The position numbers and the translations under genes are program-made. A stretch of 64,000 bases of DNA, from NCBI RefSeq assembly GCF_054482525.1, contig NZ_CM137006.1; one strand, written 5' to 3'. Below the pieces are notes generated by a model. That model was not told where the DNA came from. It did not search any database and was given only the letters and a program-made list of their open reading frames with translations. Of the stretch, positions 34,828-44,955 are shown one piece after another. Numbering within the stretch: the first letter of the stretch is position 1; the number at the start of each line of letters is the position of its first letter.

Positions 34828-35661
34828 TTATCGCATTATGCCCATAAAGCCATGCACACCCATATACACACCAACTAAGCCAATCAACAGACTGGAAAAA
34901 TAGGGGGCGCGTTTAGCGAGAGTGTTAAATCCGCTCCAGCGTTTTGCGACCTGCTGAACGCTGATTGCTGCGCCAACGCCTACGGTGACCAGCGTTAACG
35001 CCAGGCCGATGCTGAAACTGACGACCAGTGTTGCGCCCAGTGTCAGGGCTTTCAACTGAATGCAAATCAACAGCACGGTAATTGCTGCCGGGCAGGGGAT
35101 AAGGCCACCGGTTAAGCCAAATAACAAAATTTGCCAGTTGGTGACCTCTCTACCATCAAAGCGTCGTTTAATGTCATTGGCATGGGCTCGTGCATGAGCA
35201 TCCTGATACTCCCCATGTTCGTGATGGTGATGATGTCCATGGTCGTGGTGATCTTCGTGATCGTGATGATGATGGTGATGATGCTCATGATCATGCCCGT
35301 GCATATTCTCCAGCCAGTTGCGTTCGCCGCGCCAGGTACGCCAGAACATCCAGAACGCGGTGCCAATAATGATCACCGCGGAAATCAACTGGAGCCACGG
35401 TTCTGCTGATTGAGCAGTAAAGCGCTTACTGATCACCATCCCGCCAAAGGCAATCAACCAGACCACCGCGGTATGCGAAATGGTTGCTGCCAGTCCGAGC
35501 ATCACCGCCTGTTTAATGGTGCCTTTGATGGCGATGATAAACGCCGCCATCATCGTTTTTGAGTGCCCTGGTTCCAGGCCATGAAGCGCACCAAGTAAGA
35601 TGGCGCTGGGGATGAAGAACCAGGCGTTTCCTTGCTGAAGAAGAGTGGTAAATTCGGTCAT
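34828..35661 (-). CDS. rcnA: Ni/Co efflux membrane protein with a histidine-rich loop
   Basis: Polytopic membrane ORF with a central HGHDHEHHHHHHHDHEDHHDHGHHHHHEHG tract. It is divergent from rcnR. Confidence 0.93.
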   Translation of the reverse strand: MTEFTTLLQQGNAWFFIPSAILLGALHGLEPGHSKTMMAAFIIAIKGTIKQAVMLGLAATISHTAVVWLIAFGGMVISKRFTAQSAEPWLQLISAVIIIGTAFWMFWRTWRGERNWLENMHGHDHEHHHHHHHDHEDHHDHGHHHHHEHGEYQDAHARAHANDIKRRFDGREVTNWQILLFGLTGGLIPCPAAITVLLICIQLKALTLGATLVVSFSIGLALTLVTVGVGAAISVQQVAKRWSGFNTLAKRAPYFSSLLIGLVGVYMGVHGFMGIMR

Positions 35662-35698
35662 GATAATAATTCTTAGTATTAATTCGGCAATCCGATTC

Positions 35699-35733
35699 TA
35701 CTCCCCCCCAGTACCTGATACTACCCCCCAGTA
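35699..35733. promoter_or_regulatory. two RcnR operator sites of the TACT-G6-N-AGTA type in the rcnA-rcnR intergenic region
   Basis: TACTCCCCCCCAGTA (35699-35713) and TACTACCCCCCAGTA (35719-35733). They match the published RcnR operator consensus read on the complementary strand. Confidence 0.8.
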
Positions 35734-35781
35734 GATTAATAGTGCTATGATTTTTCATGTTCTTGTTAACCAGGTGTTGCC

Positions 35782-36054
35782 ATGTCTCATACCATCCGTG
35801 ATAAACAGAAACTGAAAGCGCGTGCCAGTAAGATTCAGGGCCAGGTCGTGGCGCTCAAGAAAATGCTCGACGAGCCGCACGAATGCGCTGCAGTTTTACA
35901 ACAGATTGCTGCTATCCGTGGCGCGGTAAACGGTCTGATGCGGGAAGTGATTAAAGGTCATCTGACGGAACACATCGTTCACCAGGGGGATGAGCTAAAA
36001 CGTGAAGAAGATCTGGATGTCGTTCTGAAGGTGCTGGATTCTTATATCAAATAA
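35782..36054 (+). CDS. rcnR: CsoR/RcnR-family Ni/Co-responsive repressor
   Basis: 90 aa ([22 protein letters not shown]..), matching K-12 RcnR. Confidence 0.94.
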
Positions 36055-36091
36055 TTTATTAACGCTATTGTAAAACTGCCGTTTTTCCTCG

Positions 36092-36120
36092 TTTACAACG
36101 GGTGCGCTGGACATTACCAT
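36092..36120 (+). promoter_or_regulatory. putative native thiM promoter, now separated from thiMD and pointing into the island integrase
   Basis: TTTACA-17 bp-TACCAT lies immediately upstream of the left copy of the riboswitch sequence. This is a prediction by eye. Confidence 0.45.
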
Positions 36121-36142
36121 CCTCCTCTGCGATTTATCATCG

Positions 36143-36224
36143 CAACCAAACGACTCGGGGTGCCCTTCTGCGTGAAGGCTGAGAAATACCCGTATCACCT
36201 GATCTGGATAATGCCAGCGTAGGG
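36143..36224 (+). repeat. attL: 82-bp direct repeat, a 5' portion of the TPP (thi-box) aptamer that lacks the 3' strand of the closing helix and the expression platform
   Basis: Identical base for base to 44033-44114. It contains CTGAGA and the other thi-box core sequences. It diverges from the thiM leader after ..GCGTAGGG. Confidence 0.9.
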
Positions 36225-36307
36225 GGCCAAAATAGTCTTGAAAATTATGTGGTTGTATCTCTTTTTGACCATAAATCATGCTGTTAAGGTACAAAAAGGG
36301 GTCGTTT

Positions 36308-37615
36308 ATGAGGTCAAGAACTCTCCCATACACATTTCAGCGAAACGGTAATTACTATCTACAAATCCGGCTTTCGGATGGTCGGATATACAAAAAATCA
36401 CTTTTTACTGACAGTTATCGCGAAGCATCGGCGTTGATGATTGGCCTTACTCCGCACATTCCTTTCGTTAAATCACTCGCTACTCCGTTGCCGCAATTTA
36501 ATAAGTTTGTTTCAAACTTGATCGCTTCGTCACGTAACGTAATGATTCCGTTGCCACTCCCTCAGCAATTGAACAATATTTCTAAAGAAGTTTTGCAGCT
36601 TCAACCACCAGCCAAACCGGAAAAGGTACTAACACTTGCTGATGCGTGGGCTATGTACAAGGAGGAAAGAGGTCGAAATTGGACAAAATCGATCTCAATA
36701 GCAAATGAGCGTTATATGGAGGTATTGCTTGTTGTCTTGGGAAAAGAAACAGACGTAACGGCAATCACCAAACAAGATATTAAGCGAGTAATGGAAACTG
36801 TCGAAAACTTACCAAAGCGTGTAGTGCAACCGTATAGGTCAATGACTATTCAGCAACTAATCGAATGTGATGATGTGCTGCCAGAGGATTTAGTTGGTGC
36901 TGAGGCTGTACATAAGCACCTTAAAATCTACAAATCGTTATTCAAAACATTTCTGACTGAAAACAAAGATATTCTATCTAAGTCTCCGACTGATGGAATA
37001 GTAGCGGCACCATCCAAAGCTAGGTTTGGTGCATACAGTGCAGCAGAAATGAAAAAATTTGTAGGATGGGCACTAAAGCAGCCTGATGGATGGCAGAAGT
37101 GGATCACTTTGTTGTTGGCGTACACAGGAGCCAGAAGAGGTGAGATTGCTAAACTGGAGAAGTCGCAGATCAAATTTGATGAAGATAGCCAGCGGCACTA
37201 TCTTCTGATCGCGGAAAGAAGGCTGGGTAAAACTGAGAATGCTACAAGACAGGTAGTGATTCATCCCAAACTGATTGAGTGGGGGTTTCTGGATTTTGTT
37301 AACCGCCAATGGAAAGAGAAAATCTTTTCGGAAGTCTCAGGTCGAAATATGTCAAAGATAGGTAAAGTTCTTTCAGATGTTCGTGATCAGCTTGATATTC
37401 CTTATCTTGATGATTATGGGCAGCGGCGCTTGGTGCATAGTTTCCGGCATACTATGATTTCTACTTGTTTAGCTGGTTGGGTGAGTAATTTGGCGCATCT
37501 GCAACAGGTGGTAGGTCATGAAAAGAGTGGAGTAGGGATTACCCAGCGTTATCTGCACACATTCCCACTTTCCACCGTTTGTTATGTGATCGATGGTCTT
37601 TGTTGGGAGACTTAG
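36308..37615 (+). CDS. tyrosine recombinase / integrase
   Basis: The ORF in the track starts at 36278. I prefer the ATG at 36308, after an AAAGGGG Shine-Dalgarno. N-terminal arm-binding-like RNGNYYLQIRL, then catalytic-domain motifs ARRGEI, HSFRHT and GHEKSGVGITQRYLH (Tyr). Confidence 0.88.
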   Translation: MRSRTLPYTFQRNGNYYLQIRLSDGRIYKKSLFTDSYREASALMIGLTPHIPFVKSLATPLPQFNKFVSNLIASSRNVMIPLPLPQQLNNISKEVLQLQPPAKPEKVLTLADAWAMYKEERGRNWTKSISIANERYMEVLLVVLGKETDVTAITKQDIKRVMETVENLPKRVVQPYRSMTIQQLIECDDVLPEDLVGAEAVHKHLKIYKSLFKTFLTENKDILSKSPTDGIVAAPSKARFGAYSAAEMKKFVGWALKQPDGWQKWITLLLAYTGARRGEIAKLEKSQIKFDEDSQRHYLLIAERRLGKTENATRQVVIHPKLIEWGFLDFVNRQWKEKIFSEVSGRNMSKIGKVLSDVRDQLDIPYLDDYGQRRLVHSFRHTMISTCLAGWVSNLAHLQQVVGHEKSGVGITQRYLHTFPLSTVCYVIDGLCWET

Positions 37616-37743
37616 TTATTCGTGTATCCTTCTTAGTGTATAACCAGCTAATAATTTGTAGATTTTTATTGTCTGAGATCAAAAATTTTCACAACTAATT
37701 TACAATAATAACTTAAGATGAATTTAGGCTTAGTGAGTCTTCT

Positions 37744-38469
37744 ATGGTTAAAAATTTAGGCAAAAAATACAAGTATGGCGATCAACCGATAAGAGCTATT
37801 ACCATACAGATAATTGCTAATCAGTTTGGTGGGGCTGCAACGGCTAAGCAGGTAGATGATTATCTTAGAAAGCTATTTCCATCTTATAAAGATAATACTT
37901 GGCTCAATTTAATTGCTAATACAGTTAATTGTAAGCGGAGCTACTGGAGTTTCAACAAAACTGCCCGACGAACTGATGATGTAACTCATCGGCATCATAA
38001 GTATGACCGATTGTTCAAGCGTGGAAATATTTTTGAAATCTATCAACCATCTGTGCACGGTATTTGGGAATTATACCAGGATTTAGAAGGGATGTGGCGT
38101 TATCGTCAAGTAAAATCGGTTTTCGAAGAAGCTGTTGAGACGGCTGCAAAATTATCTTCAGTGGAACGAAAGCAAATTTTAGCGACAGAAAGTAAAATCC
38201 CGGAACTAATCGAAGTAACAACACGAGTTTATAAACGAAGCCCATATGTAGTTGCTGAAGTTCTTTTGAGAGCAAATGGAAAATGTCAATATTGTAAGCG
38301 AGATGCTCCTTTTCTAAAGGAAGATGGTACTCCATTTCTAGAAGTTCATCATATTGAGTGGCTTTCAAAGGGGGGGGAGGACTCTGTGGAAAATGCTATT
38401 GCATTATGTCCTAATTGCCATAGACAAGCCCATTATGGCGATCTGACATTACTACCTGTTAATAAATAG
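37744..38469 (+). CDS. HNH nuclease-domain protein with an uncharacterised 170-aa N-terminal domain (McrA-like architecture)
   Basis: C-terminal CQYCKRDAPF..EVHHIEWLSKGGEDSVENAIALCPNCHRQAH is a canonical HNH/zinc-ribbon motif. No adjacent methyltransferase gene. Confidence 0.8.
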   Translation: MVKNLGKKYKYGDQPIRAITIQIIANQFGGAATAKQVDDYLRKLFPSYKDNTWLNLIANTVNCKRSYWSFNKTARRTDDVTHRHHKYDRLFKRGNIFEIYQPSVHGIWELYQDLEGMWRYRQVKSVFEEAVETAAKLSSVERKQILATESKIPELIEVTTRVYKRSPYVVAEVLLRANGKCQYCKRDAPFLKEDGTPFLEVHHIEWLSKGGEDSVENAIALCPNCHRQAHYGDLTLLPVNK

Positions 38470-38546
38470 GCTTGATGAAAGTTCTATTTCTATATTTTTC
38501 AATATACAAATTTCCCCAAAAACGGCGTGAATATCACGCCGATCAA

Positions 38547-38894
38547 TCATACTTCAGAACACATACTCAATGTGTAAACAGCCATCTCCCCATCGGGATT
38601 AGAAGGGCGTAATACAAATATCGGTATACTGCCATTGTCAATGTATGTGGCTGCAACCCCTCCGTCAGGTGTAGCATACATCTTTGCGATGCTTTTTTGA
38701 CCTACAAAATCAAGTCTCCAAGTTTTACCGCCAAGATTTATGGTCATTTTTTTATCTTGTATATCAAAAGTTGAATCTACAGAAACTTTCTGACTTCCCG
38801 AGTCAATATGACCTTCCTGTATTGCTTTACAGGAAAAGGTTGTGGCGTGGCCCATCACTGGAATTAACAAAGCGGCAAATACTAGTTTTTTCAT
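38547..38894 (-). CDS. small secreted protein of unknown function
   Basis: I prefer the start at MKKLVFAALLIPVMGHA (signal peptide), after an AAGGGAGA Shine-Dalgarno. 115 aa with two Cys. The ORF-track start at 38951 is rejected. Confidence 0.7.
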   Translation of the reverse strand: MKKLVFAALLIPVMGHATTFSCKAIQEGHIDSGSQKVSVDSTFDIQDKKMTINLGGKTWRLDFVGQKSIAKMYATPDGGVAATYIDNGSIPIFVLRPSNPDGEMAVYTLSMCSEV

Positions 38895-39004
38895 TTGTCT
38901 CCCTTGGTGTGTCAAATGGATGGTGATGCTAATAATACATGATTGATTCAAAATGTCACGATTAGTGCGTGGTTAATTGGTGCGTCAAATTGCATCTTTG
39001 TGCC

Positions 39005-39469
39005 ATGCGAAAGAATCTGAGATACCTTTTTGGACAACGAGTAAAAGAGTTCCGTATAGCTATTGGCTTAAGCCAAGAGGCCTTTGCAGATCGGTGTGGT
39101 TTTGCACGTAGTTATATGAGTCGAATTGAGCGTGGTTGCTCTAATGCATCTCTTGATGCAATTGAGGTTCTGGCTGACGCTTTGCGTATTGAGCCTTGGC
39201 AGTTACTGGCTTCTGATTCAAGGAAACCTGATGATCAGGAGGTACTTGTTCCTTATGCTGCAGATGGGTCGTGTTTTCATCCAGGATTGGCAAGTACTCG
39301 CGATGGTTCGTTTAGAGTAGGGGAAAAATCAGCCCAGAAACGTTTCAGTTCGTTCAATGAAGCTCTCGAATACCTTCGTGGAATGGAAACCGCGAAGTGG
39401 CGTAGGCCTAATGCTAGTGGTAATTGGGGAATTGTATCTGCGGTTAAATGGGATCGACTGAATCAATAA
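39005..39469 (+). CDS. XRE-family HTH protein fused to an uncharacterised C-terminal domain
   Basis: HTH region LSQEAFADRCGFARSYMSRIERGCSNASLDAIEVLADAL. The 90-aa C-terminal part (..ETAKWRRPNASGNWGIVSAVKWD..) is not recognisable to me. Start chosen at MRKNLRYLFG. Confidence 0.75.
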   Translation: MRKNLRYLFGQRVKEFRIAIGLSQEAFADRCGFARSYMSRIERGCSNASLDAIEVLADALRIEPWQLLASDSRKPDDQEVLVPYAADGSCFHPGLASTRDGSFRVGEKSAQKRFSSFNEALEYLRGMETAKWRRPNASGNWGIVSAVKWDRLNQ

Positions 39470-39635
39470 GATATCAGTAATTTTCGGGCCACTCCACAAG
39501 GCAATAAGTGGCTTAGTGGTGATTATCGAAGGGGAATACAAGCGAGCACCTAGGCACCATTGCAAGAACCGCTCAACGCTGAGATCAGCAAGCCCCGATT
39601 TTTGCCGACCGTCCCTGTCAAATATCAAGGAGGCA

Positions 39636-40187
39636 TTACGCCACCTGCTCTTTCTTGATACGTTGCACCGTCTGCGTGCTGACACTGAAATCTTTTGCTA
39701 CGCTCCGAATTGAGCCACCATTCGCGAGAGCGGCAGCAATTCCCGCTCGATCAATTGCTTTTCCATTACCACGTTTTGCTATACGTCCAGCGGCCTTGGC
39801 TGCGGCGATCCCTTCACGTTGACGCTCAAGCATCATTTCACGTTCCATTTGTGCCACTGCTGCAAGAACTGTGAGCATCATATTCCCTGCGGGAGAGTTC
39901 TTTCCTGTCTTAAAGTCTTCTTTATGGAAATGCACAGACACGCCGCGCTTTGTTAATTGCTCTACAGTTGCCAGAAGGTCGGCTGTATTACGACAAAGGC
40001 GATCAATACTATGGACGTGTAACACGTCACCCTCCCGCACATAGTTCATCATTGCCTCAAACTGTGGGCGCTGAGTGTTCTTGCCTGACGCTTTATCTTC
40101 AAAGACTTTATCAAGAGTTACTCCTGCTAATTGACGGTCTGTGTTTTGTTGCACAGTCGATACCCTAATGTATCCAATATTAGCCAT
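39636..40187 (-). CDS. serine recombinase (resolvase/invertase family)
   Basis: MANIGYIRVSTVQQNTDRQ contains the catalytic Ser. Also VHSIDRLCRN and a C-terminal HTH (SIRSVAKDFSVSTQTVQRI). 183 aa. Confidence 0.9.
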   Translation of the reverse strand: MANIGYIRVSTVQQNTDRQLAGVTLDKVFEDKASGKNTQRPQFEAMMNYVREGDVLHVHSIDRLCRNTADLLATVEQLTKRGVSVHFHKEDFKTGKNSPAGNMMLTVLAAVAQMEREMMLERQREGIAAAKAAGRIAKRGNGKAIDRAGIAAALANGGSIRSVAKDFSVSTQTVQRIKKEQVA

Positions 40188-40214
40188 CTTCTTTTTTCTT
40201 CTGTATTGATTTGT

Positions 40215-40318
40215 GTGTAGTGATTATTGAACGTGTTGATTAGGTGTGTAAAGTACTTTTTTCACTACGAAATTCGAAGTTTTTTAGTGTGGTGATTTAG
40301 CCTGCCTTATCACTACAC
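40215..40318. promoter_or_regulatory. res-like site upstream of the serine recombinase gene
   Basis: Perfect 10-bp inverted repeat GTGTAGTGAT (40215-40224) / ATCACTACAC (40309-40318), with inner related half-sites TCACTAC (40262-40268) and TAGTGTGGTGA (40285-40295). Confidence 0.5.
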
Positions 40319-40572
40319 TTCTTGCATGAGAATCATGTAGTTACATTTTGGTAAAATTAGCAAGCTATTAAATTGTGTGTTTATTTTGAAAAAATAATTT
40401 TTGTTGCATTAAAGAAAACTTGTTCGACAAATAATAGGTTGATTTTTGATCAATAATTTCTGATAGTGCTCTGTAAGCCGCATTACACAAGGCGCAGCGA
40501 AAGTGATGTAAAAGTGAAGAAAGCTAACATTGCACTTTTAAACTACTTTTCATTGAATTTTTTAGTATGGAA

Positions 40573-40643
40573 TTACACAGGAATAAGTTAGGGATATTCT
40601 ATGATTTACACAGGGAATATAGGGGGATTATGGTATTACACAG
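40573..40643 (+). repeat. three direct repeats of about 20 bp with core TTACACAG, spaced 33 and 30 bp
   Basis: TATGGAATTACACAGGAATA, TATGATTTACACAGGGAATA and TATGGTATTACACAGAGTGA. Cores are at 40573, 40606 and 40636. Confidence 0.7.
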
Positions 40644-40673
40644 AGTGAGTGCTATGTGATGATTGGTAGTAAC

Positions 40674-40782
40674 GGTAGGTCACTGTGAACTAGGGGGGTA
40701 GGTCACTGTGAACTAGGGGGGTAGGTCACTGTGAGCTAGGGGGTAGGTCACTGTGAACTAGGGGGTAGGTCACTGTGAACTA
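40674..40782 (+). repeat. five contiguous iterons (GGTAGGTCACTGTGAACTAGGGG, period 23/23/22/22 bp): putative vegetative origin
   Basis: Read directly from the sequence. Copy 3 carries one A-to-G change. The array is immediately followed by an AT-rich tract. Confidence 0.85.
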
Positions 40783-40877
40783 CAATAAGACTATAATAAG
40801 ACTATTAATAAAACTATATTAGATTATTAATTAGATCATAATAATAATATTCTTTATATCTATATATATATGATCTT
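40783..40877. other. AT-rich tract next to the iterons (candidate DNA-unwinding element)
   Basis: Almost pure A/T, with internal AATAAGACTAT x2 and a TATATATATAT run. Confidence 0.5.
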
Positions 40878-41883
40878 TTGCCTTCCGGCGTTAGCTTCAC
40901 TCTCTGGCAAGCAGCCTTACTCCGCTACCTTTCGGGCTACGTTGGCTGGCCCGTTCCGCTCACACCGAAAGCAAAGCGTTACTTTCTTCGTGTAACTTCG
41001 TTGGCGGTAACGCCCACGAAGGAATACTATTGCGCTGTGCGCAGTAAGAGTAATCACCTAACCAATCATCTGATTGCTTACGTGTTAACTCTCTCTAACT
41101 CTTAATTACCCTCCTACATTTAATAACTCTCGTTATTCTCTGTAGTTGTGTAATTACTCGAAGAGAGAGCGGCTAAAGCTCAATTACACTCTGCTTTCCT
41201 CGTGTAATTTCACTAAGCCTCAATACAATTTCACTTCCTACATTCTGTAGTCGTGTAATTGTTTTCGGTGGAAAAGCCAGAGGCGACACCGAAAGAGAAT
41301 TCTGATCTTATTAATCTTATCTATCTTAGTTATCTTACTTACTTTATCTACTTTATTATTAATAATAGCTTTATAAGCTCTCTGTGTAGCTCTCTGACGC
41401 AAGAAACAGAGTTCAGGAAGGGAATCACCTTAGAAAAGTGTTCTTTGCGTCATAATGTGTTTTATGAAGGATTCAGAGGTGTTTCATAACAGAGATGTAT
41501 AGAGGATACTTTAGGTAATTAAAAATAAGGGGTCTAAATGCTTCTCTAACAGCATTAAGCAGGGTAGAGAATGGAAACCGCTTTGCCTACATATATAAAC
41601 TCACTACAGGGCTTTACAGAGCGTTTTATAAAGTGACTCTCTGTTTTATATCTACCATCACCTTTTCATATACCTAACAAATACAAAATAAGCCCCTTAA
41701 ATAAGCCTCTGGCGAGCTAAACAGCCATTACATAAGAGAATGTATTGCTTTTATCAAAACCTCGTTAGAACGCGTTTTAGAGCGTTTTAGCGGATAATGA
41801 AGAATAGCACTACACAGGAGAGCACGAATTGCTAAGAAAAAATGTAACTACATGAAAAAGATCAGATTTTTTGTGAAAAGGTA

Positions 41884-41912
41884 TTGACAAACGTCTCTTT
41901 CTGTGCAATAAT
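41884..41912 (+). promoter_or_regulatory. predicted sigma70 promoter upstream of the rep-like operon
   Basis: TTGACA (41884-41889), 17 bp, then AATAAT (41907-41912). Confidence 0.5.
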
Positions 41913-41965
41913 AGGTATTAGAGGGACAGGAATAGATTCTTATCCTCTAAATAATTAAACCAATG

Positions 41966-42010
41966 CACCGCACTTTGAAGCCCAAGGCTTGTAAGGTGTG
42001 TTTTTTCTTT
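41966..42010 (+). terminator. intrinsic-terminator-like hairpin between the promoter and the first ORF (attenuator, or the 3' end of a roughly 90-nt sRNA)
   Basis: Long imperfect stem 41966-41982/41986-42000 around a CAA loop, followed by TTTTTTCTTTT. It lies 29 bp upstream of the ATG at 42039. Confidence 0.55.
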
Positions 42011-42038
42011 TAACCAAATAGAATAAGGAGGCTAATTA

Positions 42039-42227
42039 ATGAAATATTTTACTCCACAGGATGTAGTAGAAGCCTGGAAACGTGGTGAGATCAACCGCTT
42101 TAAAGTAAGGATGTATAGAAACACCGCTCGCCGTTGTGGTTATCCAGAGCGTGAAAAATGTTTTGACGATGCACTAAAAATTATTGATGAACTGCGTAAA
42201 GCTGAGAAAGAAGCAGAGAAAAAATAA
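42039..42227 (+). CDS. 62-aa basic/acidic small protein, unknown function
   Basis: Strong AAGGAGG Shine-Dalgarno 8 nt upstream. It is the first ORF of a tightly packed 4-gene cluster. Confidence 0.65.
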   Translation: MKYFTPQDVVEAWKRGEINRFKVRMYRNTARRCGYPEREKCFDDALKIIDELRKAEKEAEKK

Positions 42228-42249
42228 TAGACAAGAGAAGGAGAAAACT

Positions 42250-42417
42250 ATGAGCGAAACTAAGAAACCAATTCCGCGCACTTACCTACACGTTGACCCT
42301 GAAATCTTCAAGGTTTTATTTGCTGAAGCCAAGAAAAGGCAAATTATGGTCAGTGATTTGATGTTAGAAATCATTACTGAAGCAGCAGAGAACATCAAAC
42401 AAAAAAAGGGTAAGTGA
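42250..42417 (+). CDS. 55-aa ribbon-helix-helix (CopG/Arc-like) protein candidate
   Basis: Start at MSETKKPIPRTYLHV after AAGGAGAA. The beta-strand, helix, helix pattern (RTYLHVDPEIFKVLFAEAKKRQIMVSDLMLEII) fits an RHH fold. The ORF-track start at 42184 is rejected. Confidence 0.6.
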   Translation: MSETKKPIPRTYLHVDPEIFKVLFAEAKKRQIMVSDLMLEIITEAAENIKQKKGK

Positions 42418-42468
42418 TCCTCATTCACTTTAGTAGCGCATTAAGCGTGATTTATAAGGAGATTTTTA

Positions 42469-43158
42469 ATGATTAATCAACTAACTTTTACAAAACACTA
42501 TGACACGTTTGATAATGTATCAAAGATTTATTCTGATAAATTCCCTCAAGGAAAAGATTTAGATCTATTACATATTGTGCTTTATTTTCGATTCCTTAGT
42601 TATCAGGAAAACAACCTTAATTGTTATGAAAGTCACGAAACATTAGCTAAGATTTTTAAGTCTTCAGCGTCAACAATTAAACGTAAGATAAACGATCTTA
42701 AAGAGATGGGATTATTAGAAACATCCCCACATCCTGATCCGTATATTTCATCTTTGATTTACAATGCTCTCCCTCTCACAGATGCACATATTACTCCCCC
42801 AGGAGAATCATCACTCTCTGATCTTTCTGAGGCAGAAGAAGCACAGGAACAACCTAAAGGCCATAAACAGCCTTCTTTTGATGTTCTTGATGATTGGGAT
42901 ACGCCTTTACCCTGGGAGACGGAAGAAACACCTGTTTCATCAAGTGAAAAAGTAGCTAATGATAATGAGGAGGATGTGTTAGAGAATTTTGCCTCTCTTA
43001 TCATCCAGGAGAAACACACAAGAACAGGAGGAGCATCATTTATTGAGTTTGCAAATTCACTAGCTTGTAGATACGGGCTAAAACGACCAAATGGTATTGA
43101 GGCATATTTTTCTAAGAATTACCCAAATATATACGATGACTTTGATATTCCATTTTAA
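42469..43158 (+). CDS. putative replication initiator (winged-helix N-terminal domain, acidic C-terminal half)
   Basis: HETLAKIFKSSASTIKRKINDLKEMGLLE is an HTH/wHTH like those in DnaD/Rep-type initiators. AAGGAG Shine-Dalgarno. It is encoded near the iteron array. The function is inferred. Confidence 0.55.
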   Translation: MINQLTFTKHYDTFDNVSKIYSDKFPQGKDLDLLHIVLYFRFLSYQENNLNCYESHETLAKIFKSSASTIKRKINDLKEMGLLETSPHPDPYISSLIYNALPLTDAHITPPGESSLSDLSEAEEAQEQPKGHKQPSFDVLDDWDTPLPWETEETPVSSSEKVANDNEEDVLENFASLIIQEKHTRTGGASFIEFANSLACRYGLKRPNGIEAYFSKNYPNIYDDFDIPF

Positions 43159-43169
43159 TAAGGAGGGTT

Positions 43170-43415
43170 ATGATTCAATATTTAGTAAAAAATCAAGTAG
43201 ACAGAATTCAGTGTAATGACACAGGAAAACGCATCTACGAGACACTTGTTTACCTCTATAAAGGAAAGCCAACACCGCTAAAATATAGCGATGTGTTACA
43301 TCGAGCAGGTTGCTCTGAGTCAGGTTTAAAATTCTGGCTGAAACAGCTATCAAATTTCGGTGTTATTGAAATGAAAGAGCTGTCTTTTTCTACATTCAAC
43401 CTCAAGAAGTTATAG
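43170..43415 (+). CDS. 81-aa winged-helix-like small DNA-binding protein candidate
   Basis: AAGGAGGG Shine-Dalgarno. The YSDVLHRAGCSESGLKFWLKQLSNFGVIE segment looks like a wHTH. Confidence 0.55.
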   Translation: MIQYLVKNQVDRIQCNDTGKRIYETLVYLYKGKPTPLKYSDVLHRAGCSESGLKFWLKQLSNFGVIEMKELSFSTFNLKKL

Positions 43416-43483
43416 AAAATAGAATTCATCTATTCCACGCTCTAATTCTATTTCTCTGTTTAATATAAAAGGAAAACATTATT

Positions 43484-43561
43484 ATGGTAATAGCTATGTG
43501 GTGGTTGTTGTTTTTTATGCTCGTAGAAACATATGCAAGTAAGTCTGGAAAACAAAAATAA
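43484..43561 (+). CDS. candidate 25-aa hydrophobic peptide (MVIAMWWLLFFMLVETYASKSGKQK)
   Basis: Hand-translated. AAGGA lies 10 nt upstream. It has a hydrophobic N-terminal part and a basic tail, like type I toxins or small membrane peptides. There is no other support. Confidence 0.25.
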   Translation: MVIAMWWLLFFMLVETYASKSGKQK

Positions 43562-43580
43562 TATATTGATGATTTGTTTT

Positions 43581-43820
43581 TTATAACTTCGTGGTGTCAA
43601 GTCCAGCAGCTTTGAGTCGCTCGGTAAGATTTCTCATTTTGCTGAACTCTGTACCAAAGCTGGCTTTAAGTCCTACACCTTCACAAAACTCTTTTGCCGT
43701 AACCTTTTTCAGATGGTCAGCATATTTGATCATCTGGAGGTGCATTTCCATCGTTTGGCTATTTCGTGGTGCGCTGCTAATGGCTTGCTTAATGTTCTCG
43801 TAGATCTGGGTTTCTGTCAT
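43581..43820 (-). CDS. 79-aa protein of unknown function at the right end of the island
   Basis: Clean ORF, MTETQIYENIKQAISSAPRNSQ... It is the last gene before attR. Confidence 0.6.
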   Translation of the reverse strand: MTETQIYENIKQAISSAPRNSQTMEMHLQMIKYADHLKKVTAKEFCEGVGLKASFGTEFSKMRNLTERLKAAGLDTTKL

Positions 43821-44032
43821 TTTTTATCTCACCTATCAAATTTAGATAAATAATATAAATTAGCAAATTAAGATAATCAATAGTTTTTATCATCTGAATG
43901 ATAGATGTTAAATGTTTCTTTTTCATTTCTGATATGGGGTACAAAATGGGGTACACAGAGAAGAAGCAATTAATGGAGGCGAGCTTGCATCTGCAAGCCA
44001 CTTCCCCTAAGCTGGCACAAAATATAGAGATT

Positions 44033-44166
44033 CAACCAAACGACTCGGGGTGCCCTTCTGCGTGAAGGCTGAGAAATACCCGTATCACCTGATCTGGATA
44101 ATGCCAGCGTAGGGAAGTCACGGACCACCAGGTCATTGCTTCTTCACGTTATGGCAGGAGCAAACT
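44033..44166 (+). promoter_or_regulatory. complete TPP (thi-box) riboswitch of thiM; its first 82 nt form the attR repeat
   Basis: CGACTCGGGGTGCCCTTCTGCGTGAAGGCTGAGAAATACCCGTATCACCTGATCTGGATAATGCCAGCGTAGGGAAGTC matches the well-studied E. coli thiM aptamer. It is followed by the native expression platform and a GGAG Shine-Dalgarno. Confidence 0.92.
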
Positions 44167-44955
44167 ATGCAAGTCGACCTGCTGAGTTCCGCGCAATCTG
44201 CGCACGCGTTACACCTTTTTCACCAACATTCCCCTCTTGTGCACTGCATGACCAACGATGTGGTGCAAACCTTTACTGCCAATACCTTGCTGGCGCTCGG
44301 TGCATCGCCAGCGATGGTTATCGAAACCGAAGAGGCCAGTCAGTTTGCGGCTATCGCCAGTGCGTTGCTGATTAACGTTGGCACGCTGACGCAGCCACGC
44401 GCACAGGCGATGCGTGCCGCCGTTGAACAGGCAAAACGCTCTCAAACACCCTGGATGCTTGATCCAGTAGCGGTGGGTGCACTCGATTATCGCCGCCGTT
44501 TTTGTCTGGAACTTCTGTCTCATAAGCCAACCGCCATACGTGGTAATGCTTCGGAAATCATGGCATTAGCTGGCGTTGCTAATGGTGGACGGGGAGTGGA
44601 TACCACTGACGCCGCAGCTAACGCGATACCCGCTGCACAAACACTGGCACGGGAAACTGGCGCAATCGTCGTGGTCACTGGCGAGATGGATTATGTTACC
44701 GATGGACATCGTATCATTGGTATTCACGGTGGCGATCCGTTAATGACCAAAGTGGTAGGAACTGGCTGTGCATTATCGGCGGTTGTCGCTGCCTGTTGTG
44801 CGTTACCAGGCGATATGCTGGAAAATGTCGCATCTGCCTGTCACTGGATGAAACAAGCCGGAGAACGCGCAGTCGCCAGAAGCGAGGGGCCAGGCAGTTT
44901 TGTTCCACATTTCCTTGATGCGCTCTGGCAATTGACGCAGGAGGTGCAGGCATGA
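44167..44955 (+). CDS. thiM: hydroxyethylthiazole kinase
   Basis: 262 aa ([32 protein letters not shown]..), matching K-12 ThiM. The stop overlaps the thiD start. Confidence 0.95.

Follow-up and report, generated by a model that had tools for sequence, protein, structure and literature searches.

The window, that is, the whole 64-kb stretch of DNA analyzed here, comes from an Escherichia coli chromosome and is 100% identical to strains SCU-102 and CE0007a. Between rcnR and thiM, it carries a 7,890-bp island, the ends of which are perfect 82-bp direct repeats, attL (36143–36224) and attR (44033–44114), 100% identical to each other and spaced by 7,890 bp from start to start. The left repeat is part of a TPP riboswitch aptamer (Rfam match at 36146–36241, 61.3 bits), and the right one, delineated by repeat search and Rfam, lies within the riboswitch that precedes thiM (Rfam match at 44036–44132, 71.2 bits); the thiM TPP riboswitch is thus present twice because the att repeats are part of it. 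The island encodes, in this order, a tyrosine integrase (36278–37615, plus strand; Pfam Phage_integrase, 8e-7; phrog_1 integrase, 7e-27; so annotated in the identical RefSeq locus), an HNH endonuclease, a small, putatively secreted protein (judging by its N-terminus), an XRE-type HTH protein, and a small serine recombinase of the resolvase/invertase type (39636–40187, minus strand; Pfam Resolvase, 1.1e-38; phrog_125 DNA invertase, 2e-61). These genes are followed by a gene-free stretch of 1.85 kb, the rep operon and, on the strand opposite to this operon, an HTH_73 gene, the last in the island. The serine recombinase gene adjoins the putative origin region in several relatives, and its product is possibly a multimer resolvase.

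The 7.9-kb island lacks capsid, decoration, tape-measure, and baseplate genes. Its 12-kb relatives at thrW (tRNA-Thr) carry genes for the capsid, the tape-measure protein and a Dit-like protein, and relatives inserted at the same thiM site hold different cargo, namely, GmrSD. Judging from this gene content, the element in the window appears to be a reduced derivative of larger satellites. Relatives of the 3.2-kb origin-and-rep region are present in 746 of the 5,426 complete E. coli genomes.

The gene-free stretch houses an array of short direct repeats. Tandem Repeats Finder delineates 40674–40782 as a tandem repeat of period 22, with 4.8 copies, 96% matches and the consensus GGTAGGTCACTGTGAACTAGGGG; in a repeat search, the in-register copies start at 40671, 40694, 40717, 40739, and 40761, at steps of 23, 23, 22, and 22 bp. 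These five type A iterons (40671–40787, plus strand), the predicted binding sites of the RepA-like protein described below, consist of the core TAGGTCACTGTGAACTA and a G-run, except that the fifth copy has the 17-bp core but misses the G-run. The 21-mer of the iteron occurs four times at 3 or fewer mismatches, compared with 0 occurrences in 100 dinucleotide-preserving shuffles, and the core is semi-palindromic, with 14 of the 17 positions self-complementary. Invariant positions defined by 28 sites, from six loci with an identical initiator N-domain and 3 to 6 copies per locus, yield the type A consensus TAGgTCA-N3-TGAnCTA followed by G5. The iterons of RepA_N initiators are semi-palindromic direct repeats that typically converge on a poly-A tract (PMC7145576); the type A consensus, written as TAGnTCA-N3-TGAnCTA, is semi-palindromic as well, its centre is CTG or TAG, and a central poly-A is absent.

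The array is directly followed by an AT-rich tract (40783–40872), the predicted DNA unwinding element, which contains a (TA)n run, two copies of AATAAGACTAT and two GATC sites, at 40834 and 40872. Its A+T content is 86.7%, and among all 63,913 88-bp segments of the 64 kb, the one with the highest A+T content (88.6%) starts at 40784. The original prediction had described this arrangement, and its anatomy holds exactly: the five head-to-tail repeats, with the T of TAGG at 40676, 40699, 40722, 40744, and 40766, the single point variant (an A-to-G substitution in copy 3) and the adjoining AT-rich tract with its repeated motif and (TA)n run.

Several other features surround this core. Four WTTACACR boxes, two of which match the DnaA box at 8/9 positions, lie to the left of the iterons on the plus strand (40482–40642), and three more lie in the opposite orientation, on the minus strand, to the right of the origin core (41147–41259); altogether, the 64-kb window has 13 matches, 8 of them within 40245–41259, with opposed orientations on the two sides of the core. 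A DnaA-box scan detected no perfect box near the iterons, the best candidates being the 8/9 matches at 40604 and 40634. There is one IHF consensus site, at 40432. Immediately to the right of the AT tract, comparison of the relatives delineates a conserved GC-rich block (40878–41075), which recurs after the AT tract in several loci from other genera and contains a core of about 60 nt that is nearly invariant in the Escherichia, Serratia, and Enterobacter loci. As single-stranded DNA, the minus strand of this block folds with z = -2.84; a coding function is ruled out because relatives differ by 1-nt indels. The Rfam search of both strands of 35500–44800 at E <= 1 returned nothing beyond the two TPP riboswitches and a tmRNA below the threshold, with no match in the origin region.

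A perfect 17-bp inverted repeat (40333–40349 and 41839–41855) brackets the origin region, close to the invertase-like gene. The possibility that it delimits an invertible segment was rejected, given that the left arm is present in some islands only, the arms are imperfect in relatives and the opposite orientation occurs in 0 of 35 loci; the repeat is more likely a shared operator. A packaging signal borrowed from a phage was rejected as well: blastn of 40188–42040 against 50,697 phage records yielded only 36–57 bp matches near 41747–41819, from unrelated phages. The matching phages have genomes mostly of about 105–144 kb, and one of the matches is annotated as a left terminal repeat.

The rep operon is preceded by a predicted strong sigma-70-like promoter (41884–41912, plus strand; TTGACA-17-AATAAT with TG), recognized by a consensus scan with 11/12 matches. 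The operon includes four ORFs, all on the plus strand. The first of these (42039–42227, 62 aa) is an annotated CDS in the identical RefSeq locus and shows no significant family match in Pfam or PHROG. The second one (42250–42417, 55 aa) has near-identical homologs that precede the nuclease genes of phages inny and muut, and its product might adopt a ribbon-helix-helix fold. The third ORF (42469–43158, 229 aa) encodes the RepA-like initiator (hereafter, RepA), and the last one (43170–43415, 81 aa), also an annotated CDS, is kept downstream of repA in relatives. The predicted origin lies 1.7 kb upstream of repA, an unusual distance.

RepA consists of an N-terminal winged helix (of type A, in the classification introduced below), a linker, and a C-terminal domain that ends in DDFDIPF. 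Its matches among the PHROGs include a replication initiation protein (1.9e-9), O-like proteins (1.6e-4 to 2.6e-4) and a DnaD-like helicase loader. The score against Pfam HTH_36, 24.4 bits, falls just below the cutoff of 25; there is no match to Pfam RepA_N (PF06970) at E <= 0.1, no helicase or primase domain in Pfam or PHROG, and, with E values of up to 10 allowed, no match in a sequence search of PDB. This is a small family, with 39 representatives at E <= 1e-3 among 1.84 billion proteins. An AlphaFold (AF2) model was built from a 41-sequence alignment, a single-sequence model having been discarded at a pLDDT of 49. It comprises a winged helix at residues 10–110, approximately (pLDDT 85–94), a disordered acidic linker (115–165) and a small helical C-terminal domain. 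On the evidence of the model, the N-domain appears to carry the RepA_N/DnaD winged-helix fold. Its best structural match is 4RO3, the N-terminal domain of PLE RepA (PMC7145576), although none of the Foldseek matches is better than a weak E-value of 0.014, and MarR-type regulators appear between them in the ranking. PLE RepA itself was placed in RepA_N by structure, not by sequence.

Nearly all members of the RepA family end in ..(D/E)x(I/L)PF, and the ..IPF end is retained across divergent C-terminal domains. The C-terminal hexapeptide of SSB, DDDIPF, docks DnaG and other partners (PMC6163395). The resemblance of the DDFDIPF end to this tail suggests a possible route for the recruitment of host replication proteins: at the melted origin, the tail would gather SSB clients (DnaG, PriA, and the Pol III chi subunit).

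The comparison covered 35 loci, taken from E. coli chromosomes and from IMG/VR proviruses. Between the conserved left flank and the right end of the AT tract, these loci are mosaics of cassettes that each combine an iteron array with an AT tract. Beyond the tract, on its right, the main backbone family has one conserved block and the second family has another. Five iteron types can be distinguished: type A, TAGGTCAC-N-GTGAACTA plus G5; type B, GGAAATGATTTCC dyads; type C, GATACCCCTATCAA; type D, GTAACGATACGTTAC dyads; and type E, CCCCCACAGAATTCTGTTA. The RepA N-domains likewise fall into five types unrelated to each other, with 93–100% identity within a type and 4–30% between types, which share one near-identical linker and C-terminal domain; the same N-domain types recur on a second C-terminal domain family. 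In each of the 35 loci, the AT-proximal array and the N-domain are of the same type (A, 15; B, 9; C, 2; D, 6; E, 3), across several integration sites and both backbone/C-terminal-domain families, although many of the loci are clonally related, so that the number of independent events is well below 35. The thiM island itself occurs with A, B, or C pairs. When the window is compared with three relatives (L005, L007, and L008), both the iteron and the N-domain patches are replaced, and the intervening 1.4–1.7 kb are 88–90% identical; with both patches swapped and the DNA between them conserved, simple linkage explains the association poorly. The AT tract lies behind the initiator-matched array in every relative. 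Many relatives retain, in addition, non-cognate 'fossil' arrays, in ordered cassettes (D-A-E-C-B-A); the window has only the cognate array and no fossils. Indirectly, this co-variation supports the view that the RepA N-domain type determines specificity for the matching iterons. The 42469–43158 product, which the original prediction proposed to assay for binding to the iterons, is well placed as the initiator by its PHROG matches to initiators, the winged-helix model and the co-variation of iterons and N-domains in 35 of 35 loci.

The same layout is found in Enterobacter, Buttiauxella, Serratia, and Erwinia. In these genera, 3.5–5 iterons, mostly with a 22-bp period and with sequences of their own, lie about 1.4–1.5 kb upstream of the gene for a RepA homolog and are followed by a ACAATAAGA-type AT tract with GATC sites. 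Related N-domains pair with related iterons: an N-domain 45% identical to type A goes with iterons GGTCGGTCAGAGTGACGTAGG (locus L015), one 59% identical to type B with GGCAATGATTGCC dyads (L018), and one 57% identical to type D with GTAACG..GGTAC repeats (L019).

The RepA N-domains are shared with phages. The virulent phages inny and muut (Justusliebigvirus) show 97–99.6% nucleotide identity to the window from 42238, and their proteins inny_184 and muut_154 consist of two tandem RepA N-domains fused to a T5orf172/MUG113 domain (MUG113, 2e-4; T5orf172, 0.025–0.03); this C-terminal domain is homologous to T5 endonucleases. The N-domain pairs in virulent coliphages of the Stephanstirmvirinae are D+B in inny, C+B in muut and E+B in Mt1B1_P17, the last likewise fused to a T5orf172/MUG113 domain, and the inny and muut N-domains are 96–100% identical to the satellite alleles at the amino acid level. 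The RepA_N-T5orf172 proteins of Inny, Muut, and Mt1B1_P17 have been described by Barth, Dunham and Seed in 2023, who traced the first N-domains to putative E. coli satellites with MCP, decoration, tape-measure, and baseplate genes, remarked on the modularity of the RepA N-domain and considered the second N-domain to have no satellite counterpart (PMC10448857). We find that type B satellites are 95–97% identical to the second N-domain of the phage nucleases. The initial observation that type A lacks a phage nuclease is true in the isolate-phage database and was overturned by an A+B gene in L038, a 97-kb metagenomic phage contig (IMG/VR) that shares 99% identity with inny and muut in the part upstream of the gene. 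The type A part is identical to the window at 42469–42846 in 378 of 378 nucleotides and is followed by a type B domain; the gene then runs off the end of the contig, so that the nuclease domain would lie outside the available sequence.

In the ICP1 system, the nuclease Odn cuts the PLE origin at its iterons (PMC8263062). The phage chimeras share the architecture of Odn, and one would therefore predict that a natural phage nuclease targets the five repeats in the window. By this analogy, phage nucleases aimed at the repeats would fit an origin far better than an ordinary operator.

Altogether, the origin of replication of the 7.9-kb island very probably lies here, with the five repeats as the sites bound by the initiator, and the island itself appears, from its gene complement, to be a reduced representative of a previously predicted family of phage satellites in E. 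coli. This reading builds on the observed repeat anatomy, protein fold, co-variation, conservation across genera, and phage chimeras. The central claim of the original prediction, that iterons next to an unwinding element mark a Rep-dependent origin, gains support from the co-variation in 35 of 35 loci, from the recurrence of the layout in other genera and from the phage chimeras. Its description of the origin as plasmid-type applies to the iteron-based anatomy but not to the context, which points to a phage-satellite family nearest to PLE rather than a plasmid relic. A search among 72,556 plasmids returned only 2 partial matches, neither of them over the iterons; this is not a known plasmid replicon.

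Under the origin scenario, RepA would dock on the semi-palindromic iterons as a dimer, by means of its N-terminal winged helix of the RepA_N/DnaD type, and the 22–23 bp spacing would set all the RepA sites on one face of the helix. The resulting nucleoprotein complex is predicted to melt the adjacent 88% A+T tract, whereupon the C-terminal domain, with its SSB-like DDFDIPF tail, would recruit helicase or primase functions of the host or a helper phage. Replication presumably follows integrase-driven excision and probably occurs during infection by a Stephanstirmvirinae phage. The phages seem to counter with T5orf172 nucleases bearing copies of the RepA N-domain, which are predicted to cut at the iterons; such an attack would account for the joint replacement of iterons and N-domains as cassettes. 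Autonomous replication of the excised element, which the original prediction had considered, is uncertain: by analogy with PLE, where RepA is not sufficient for replication without the helper phage ICP1 (PMC7145576), replication of the island might depend on a helper.

Three other interpretations of the array were weighed against the origin. The winged-helix protein could be solely a transcriptional regulator of island genes, with no role in replication, and the array its operator, as the RefSeq name of the close RepA homologs, 'transcriptional regulator', would have it. This is very unlikely: from the array, it is 1.1 kb downstream to the rep promoter (41884–41912) and about 430 bp to the recombinase promoter; it always adjoins the most AT-rich tract; the top structural and PHROG matches of RepA are initiators; an SSB-like tail has no obvious role in a repressor; and the reuse of the N-domain by phage nucleases parallels the origin-directed nuclease Odn. 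Alternatively, the array might be a centromere-like partition site or a packaging site, with the winged-helix protein as an adaptor. Plasmid centromeres and cos/pac sites are likewise arrays of short repeats, in the former case and the latter bound by HTH proteins; a satellite requires a packaging signal, and none has been identified in the island; furthermore, the conserved GC-rich block beside the array has no assigned function. However, Pfam and PHROG searches detected no ParA/ParM-type or terminase-type gene in the island, and the noncoding region is not similar to the phages in which the cognate nucleases are encoded. Moreover, a packaging site should match the helper phage and stay constant, whereas the iterons come in five types that change in step with the protein encoded by the island itself, which makes this reading highly improbable.

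The remaining alternative accepts the origin but takes it for a relic: the repeats would persist by descent, or only titrate RepA or serve as decoys for the nucleases, in what has become a fixed HNH defence island. Indeed, the genes for capsid, tape-measure, and Dit-like proteins that the 12-kb relatives carry are missing from the island, which thus could be a decayed or domesticated derivative in which the origin is no longer used. The different cargo of the same-site relatives, GmrSD, fits such a history as well, and the fossil arrays of many relatives show that arrays can outlast their initiator. Nevertheless, the integrase, both att repeats, the four rep-operon ORFs, the promoter, and the five near-perfect iterons are all intact, the occurrence of types A, B, and C at the same site implies recent exchange and selection on matched pairs, and the window holds the cognate array alone, free of fossils. 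We therefore consider a relic unlikely and favor a functional origin.

A further, tentative proposal, which we regard as possible but rather less probable than not, joins two elements: that the RepA tail mimics the DDDIPF end of SSB, and that the fossil cassettes are traces of successive changes in origin specificity, made under pressure from origin-directed phage nucleases. The origin in the window would then be a streamlined escape form that kept the type A sites and shed the type B array, the target of every known phage nuclease.

The kind of system described here is already known; what is added are the origin, the recognition code, the ordered cassettes, the reduced thiM island, and the type A nuclease. 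The closest parallel is PLE of Vibrio cholerae (PMC7145576, PMC8263062), where, likewise, the initiator has an N-domain of the RepA_N fold without a helicase or primase domain, the N-domain and the origin are exchanged jointly as a module, and a virulent phage encodes a chimera of the N-domain with a T5orf172 nuclease. The two systems differ in that RepA of the window shows no detectable sequence similarity to PLE RepA and ends in an SSB-like tail, PLE1 has three iterons of about 30 bp as opposed to five of 22 bp, and the PLE integrase is a large serine recombinase rather than a tyrosine recombinase. Unlike the PLE/ICP1 pair, the phage nucleases directed against the E. coli satellites carry two tandem N-domains, and these satellites have five specificity types in ordered cassettes. 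The satellites of PMC10448857 share with the island the RepA family, the phage nucleases, and the organization as an att-flanked element with an integrase. They correspond to the 12-kb relatives at tRNA-Thr and a lysR-type gene, with MCP, tape-measure, and baseplate genes, whereas the 7.9-kb island in the window has no structural genes. A text search of PMC10448857 finds no mention of iterons, a satellite origin, thiM, or a riboswitch site, and, within the library of papers searched, none joins Justusliebigvirus or Stephanstirmvirinae to the word 'satellite'.

The present finding places a candidate origin and recognition code in a satellite family that so far is only a bioinformatic prediction, and would provide, in E. 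coli, a tractable counterpart of the PLE-ICP1 arms race between origin and nuclease. It offers five natural pairs of iteron and RepA specificity, each with a cognate N-domain in a known phage nuclease gene. If the role proposed for the SSB-like tail is correct, it answers the open question of how RepA_N initiators load the replisome. In addition, Stephanstirmvirinae phages are components of therapy cocktails, and whether an E. coli strain resists them may hinge on the origin type of its satellites.

Among other replicons with iterons, the phage-inducible islands (PICI/SaPI) also combine iterons with an AT-rich melting region and Rep-ori specificity; in PICI origins, two sets of iterons flank the AT region, immediately 3' of pri-rep, and the initiator is a primase-helicase (PMC6092414). 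In contrast, the window has a single set of iterons, on one side of the tract and upstream of a small RepA_N-like protein. Iteron plasmids (pSC101, P1, F, R6K, and RK2, and the RepA_N plasmids pSK41 and pTZ2162) differ from the element in the window, which has no perfect DnaA box, has its origin 1.7 kb from rep, lacks inverted control iterons at the rep promoter and is integrated in the chromosome. In phage lambda, the variable, type-specific N-domain of the O protein binds dyad-symmetric iterons beside an AT-rich region, and the conserved C-domain recruits the next factor; ori-lambda lies inside the O gene, and the P-like helicase loader is encoded next to O. Although the origin in the window is not inside the initiator gene and no P-like loader is encoded next to it, the system resembles lambda O in the type-specific N-domain, the dyad-symmetric iterons by an AT tract, and the conserved C-terminal domain.

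The second RepA N-domain is type B in all three phage nucleases (inny, L020:3233-4336; muut, L021:3232-4230; Mt1B1_P17, L028:514-1500), in which two such domains in tandem are fused to a T5orf172/MUG113 domain. These second domains share 95-97% identity with the N-domain of RepA in the type B satellites (L005, L009, L011, L027, L036, and L043-L046); a satellite homolog of the second domain was not reported in the 2023 study that described the nucleases (Barth et al., PMC10448857). A nuclease gene with a type A domain is present in a 97-kb, Justusliebigvirus-like metagenomic contig (IMGVR_UViG_3300045988_074297; L038:8001-8511). The first domain of this gene is identical to the window repA at 378 of 378 nt, and the gene is incomplete, continuing past the contig end. 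No type A domain was found in isolate phages in the phage database searched.

The similarity extends beyond the N-domains. A 55-aa ORF is located directly upstream of both repA (window 42250-42417) and the phage nuclease genes (inny, L020:3013-3195; muut, L021:3013-3180), with 97-99.6% nucleotide identity between the window and phage copies. The exchanged unit therefore includes the 55-aa ORF as well. Judging by its sequence, the ORF product looks like a ribbon-helix-helix protein; no family match backing this assignment was detected. At the other end of the gene, RepA terminates with DDFDIPF (window 43135-43158), similar to the SSB C-terminal tail DDDIPF. In alignments A1 and A2, which cover the homologs, nearly every protein finishes in ..IPF or ..LPF, including those with an unrelated C-terminal domain.

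The 12-kb relatives of the island encode a capsid protein (in the APEC O1 satellite, L002:17017-18045; Pfam Phage_cap_E, 2.8e-16) that shows distant similarity (22-24% identity) with major head proteins from phages of 142-154 kb. This is also the genome-size class of the nuclease-carrying phages.

In the origin regions of L002-L004, L006, L009, L011, L024, L026, L033, L034, and L036, non-cognate 'fossil' iteron arrays are retained upstream of the active array, and their sequence along the DNA, D, A, E, C, B, (A), is always the same. From this layout, it looks as if specificity is switched by deletions that place another cassette beside the AT tract. The window origin contains no fossil arrays.

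Several other motifs surround the origin. Immediately to the right of the AT tract lies a GC-rich block (window 40878-41075) with a core of ~60 nt that is almost unchanged across Escherichia, Serratia, and Enterobacter. A coding role is ruled out by 1-nt indels, and no Rfam match was found. The minus strand folded as ssDNA yields z = -2.84, and the block is possibly a priming or primosome site. Eight of the 13 occurrences of WTTACACR in the 64-kb window fall within 40245-41259. The plus strand carries four of them, to the left of the iterons; the minus strand carries three on the right side and a further one at 40245. In the interval from the invertase-like gene to the rep promoter, the entire origin region is flanked by a perfect 17-bp inverted repeat, TCATGTAGTTACATTTT (window 40333-40349 and 41839-41855). 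Most relatives have a conserved right arm, and only a few a conserved left one; the inverted arrangement was seen in none of the 35 loci. A short stretch (window 41747-41819) that overlaps the GCGTTTTAGA tandem repeat matches noncoding phage DNA (36-57 bp, 83-92% identity, E 3e-5 to 1e-3). The matches are to unrelated phages, mostly of about 105-144 kb, that infect Klebsiella, Salmonella, Pectobacterium, and Pseudomonas; one falls inside a stretch annotated as a left terminal repeat.

The thiM TPP riboswitch (window regions 36143-36308 and 44033-44167) is where the island has inserted, duplicating 82 bp of the aptamer. Both copies exceed the Rfam gathering score, with 61.3 bits on the left and 71.2 bits on the right. 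The integrase start lies 37-67 nt beyond the end of the left copy, so that expression of the island integrase might respond to thiamine pyrophosphate. The cargo position (window 37744-38469; L008:34-1605; L023:1-1105) differs by strain: it holds an HNH endonuclease in the window, and other strains have the restriction endonuclease GmrSD there. This variation suggests that the thiM island carries anti-phage defence genes as cargo.
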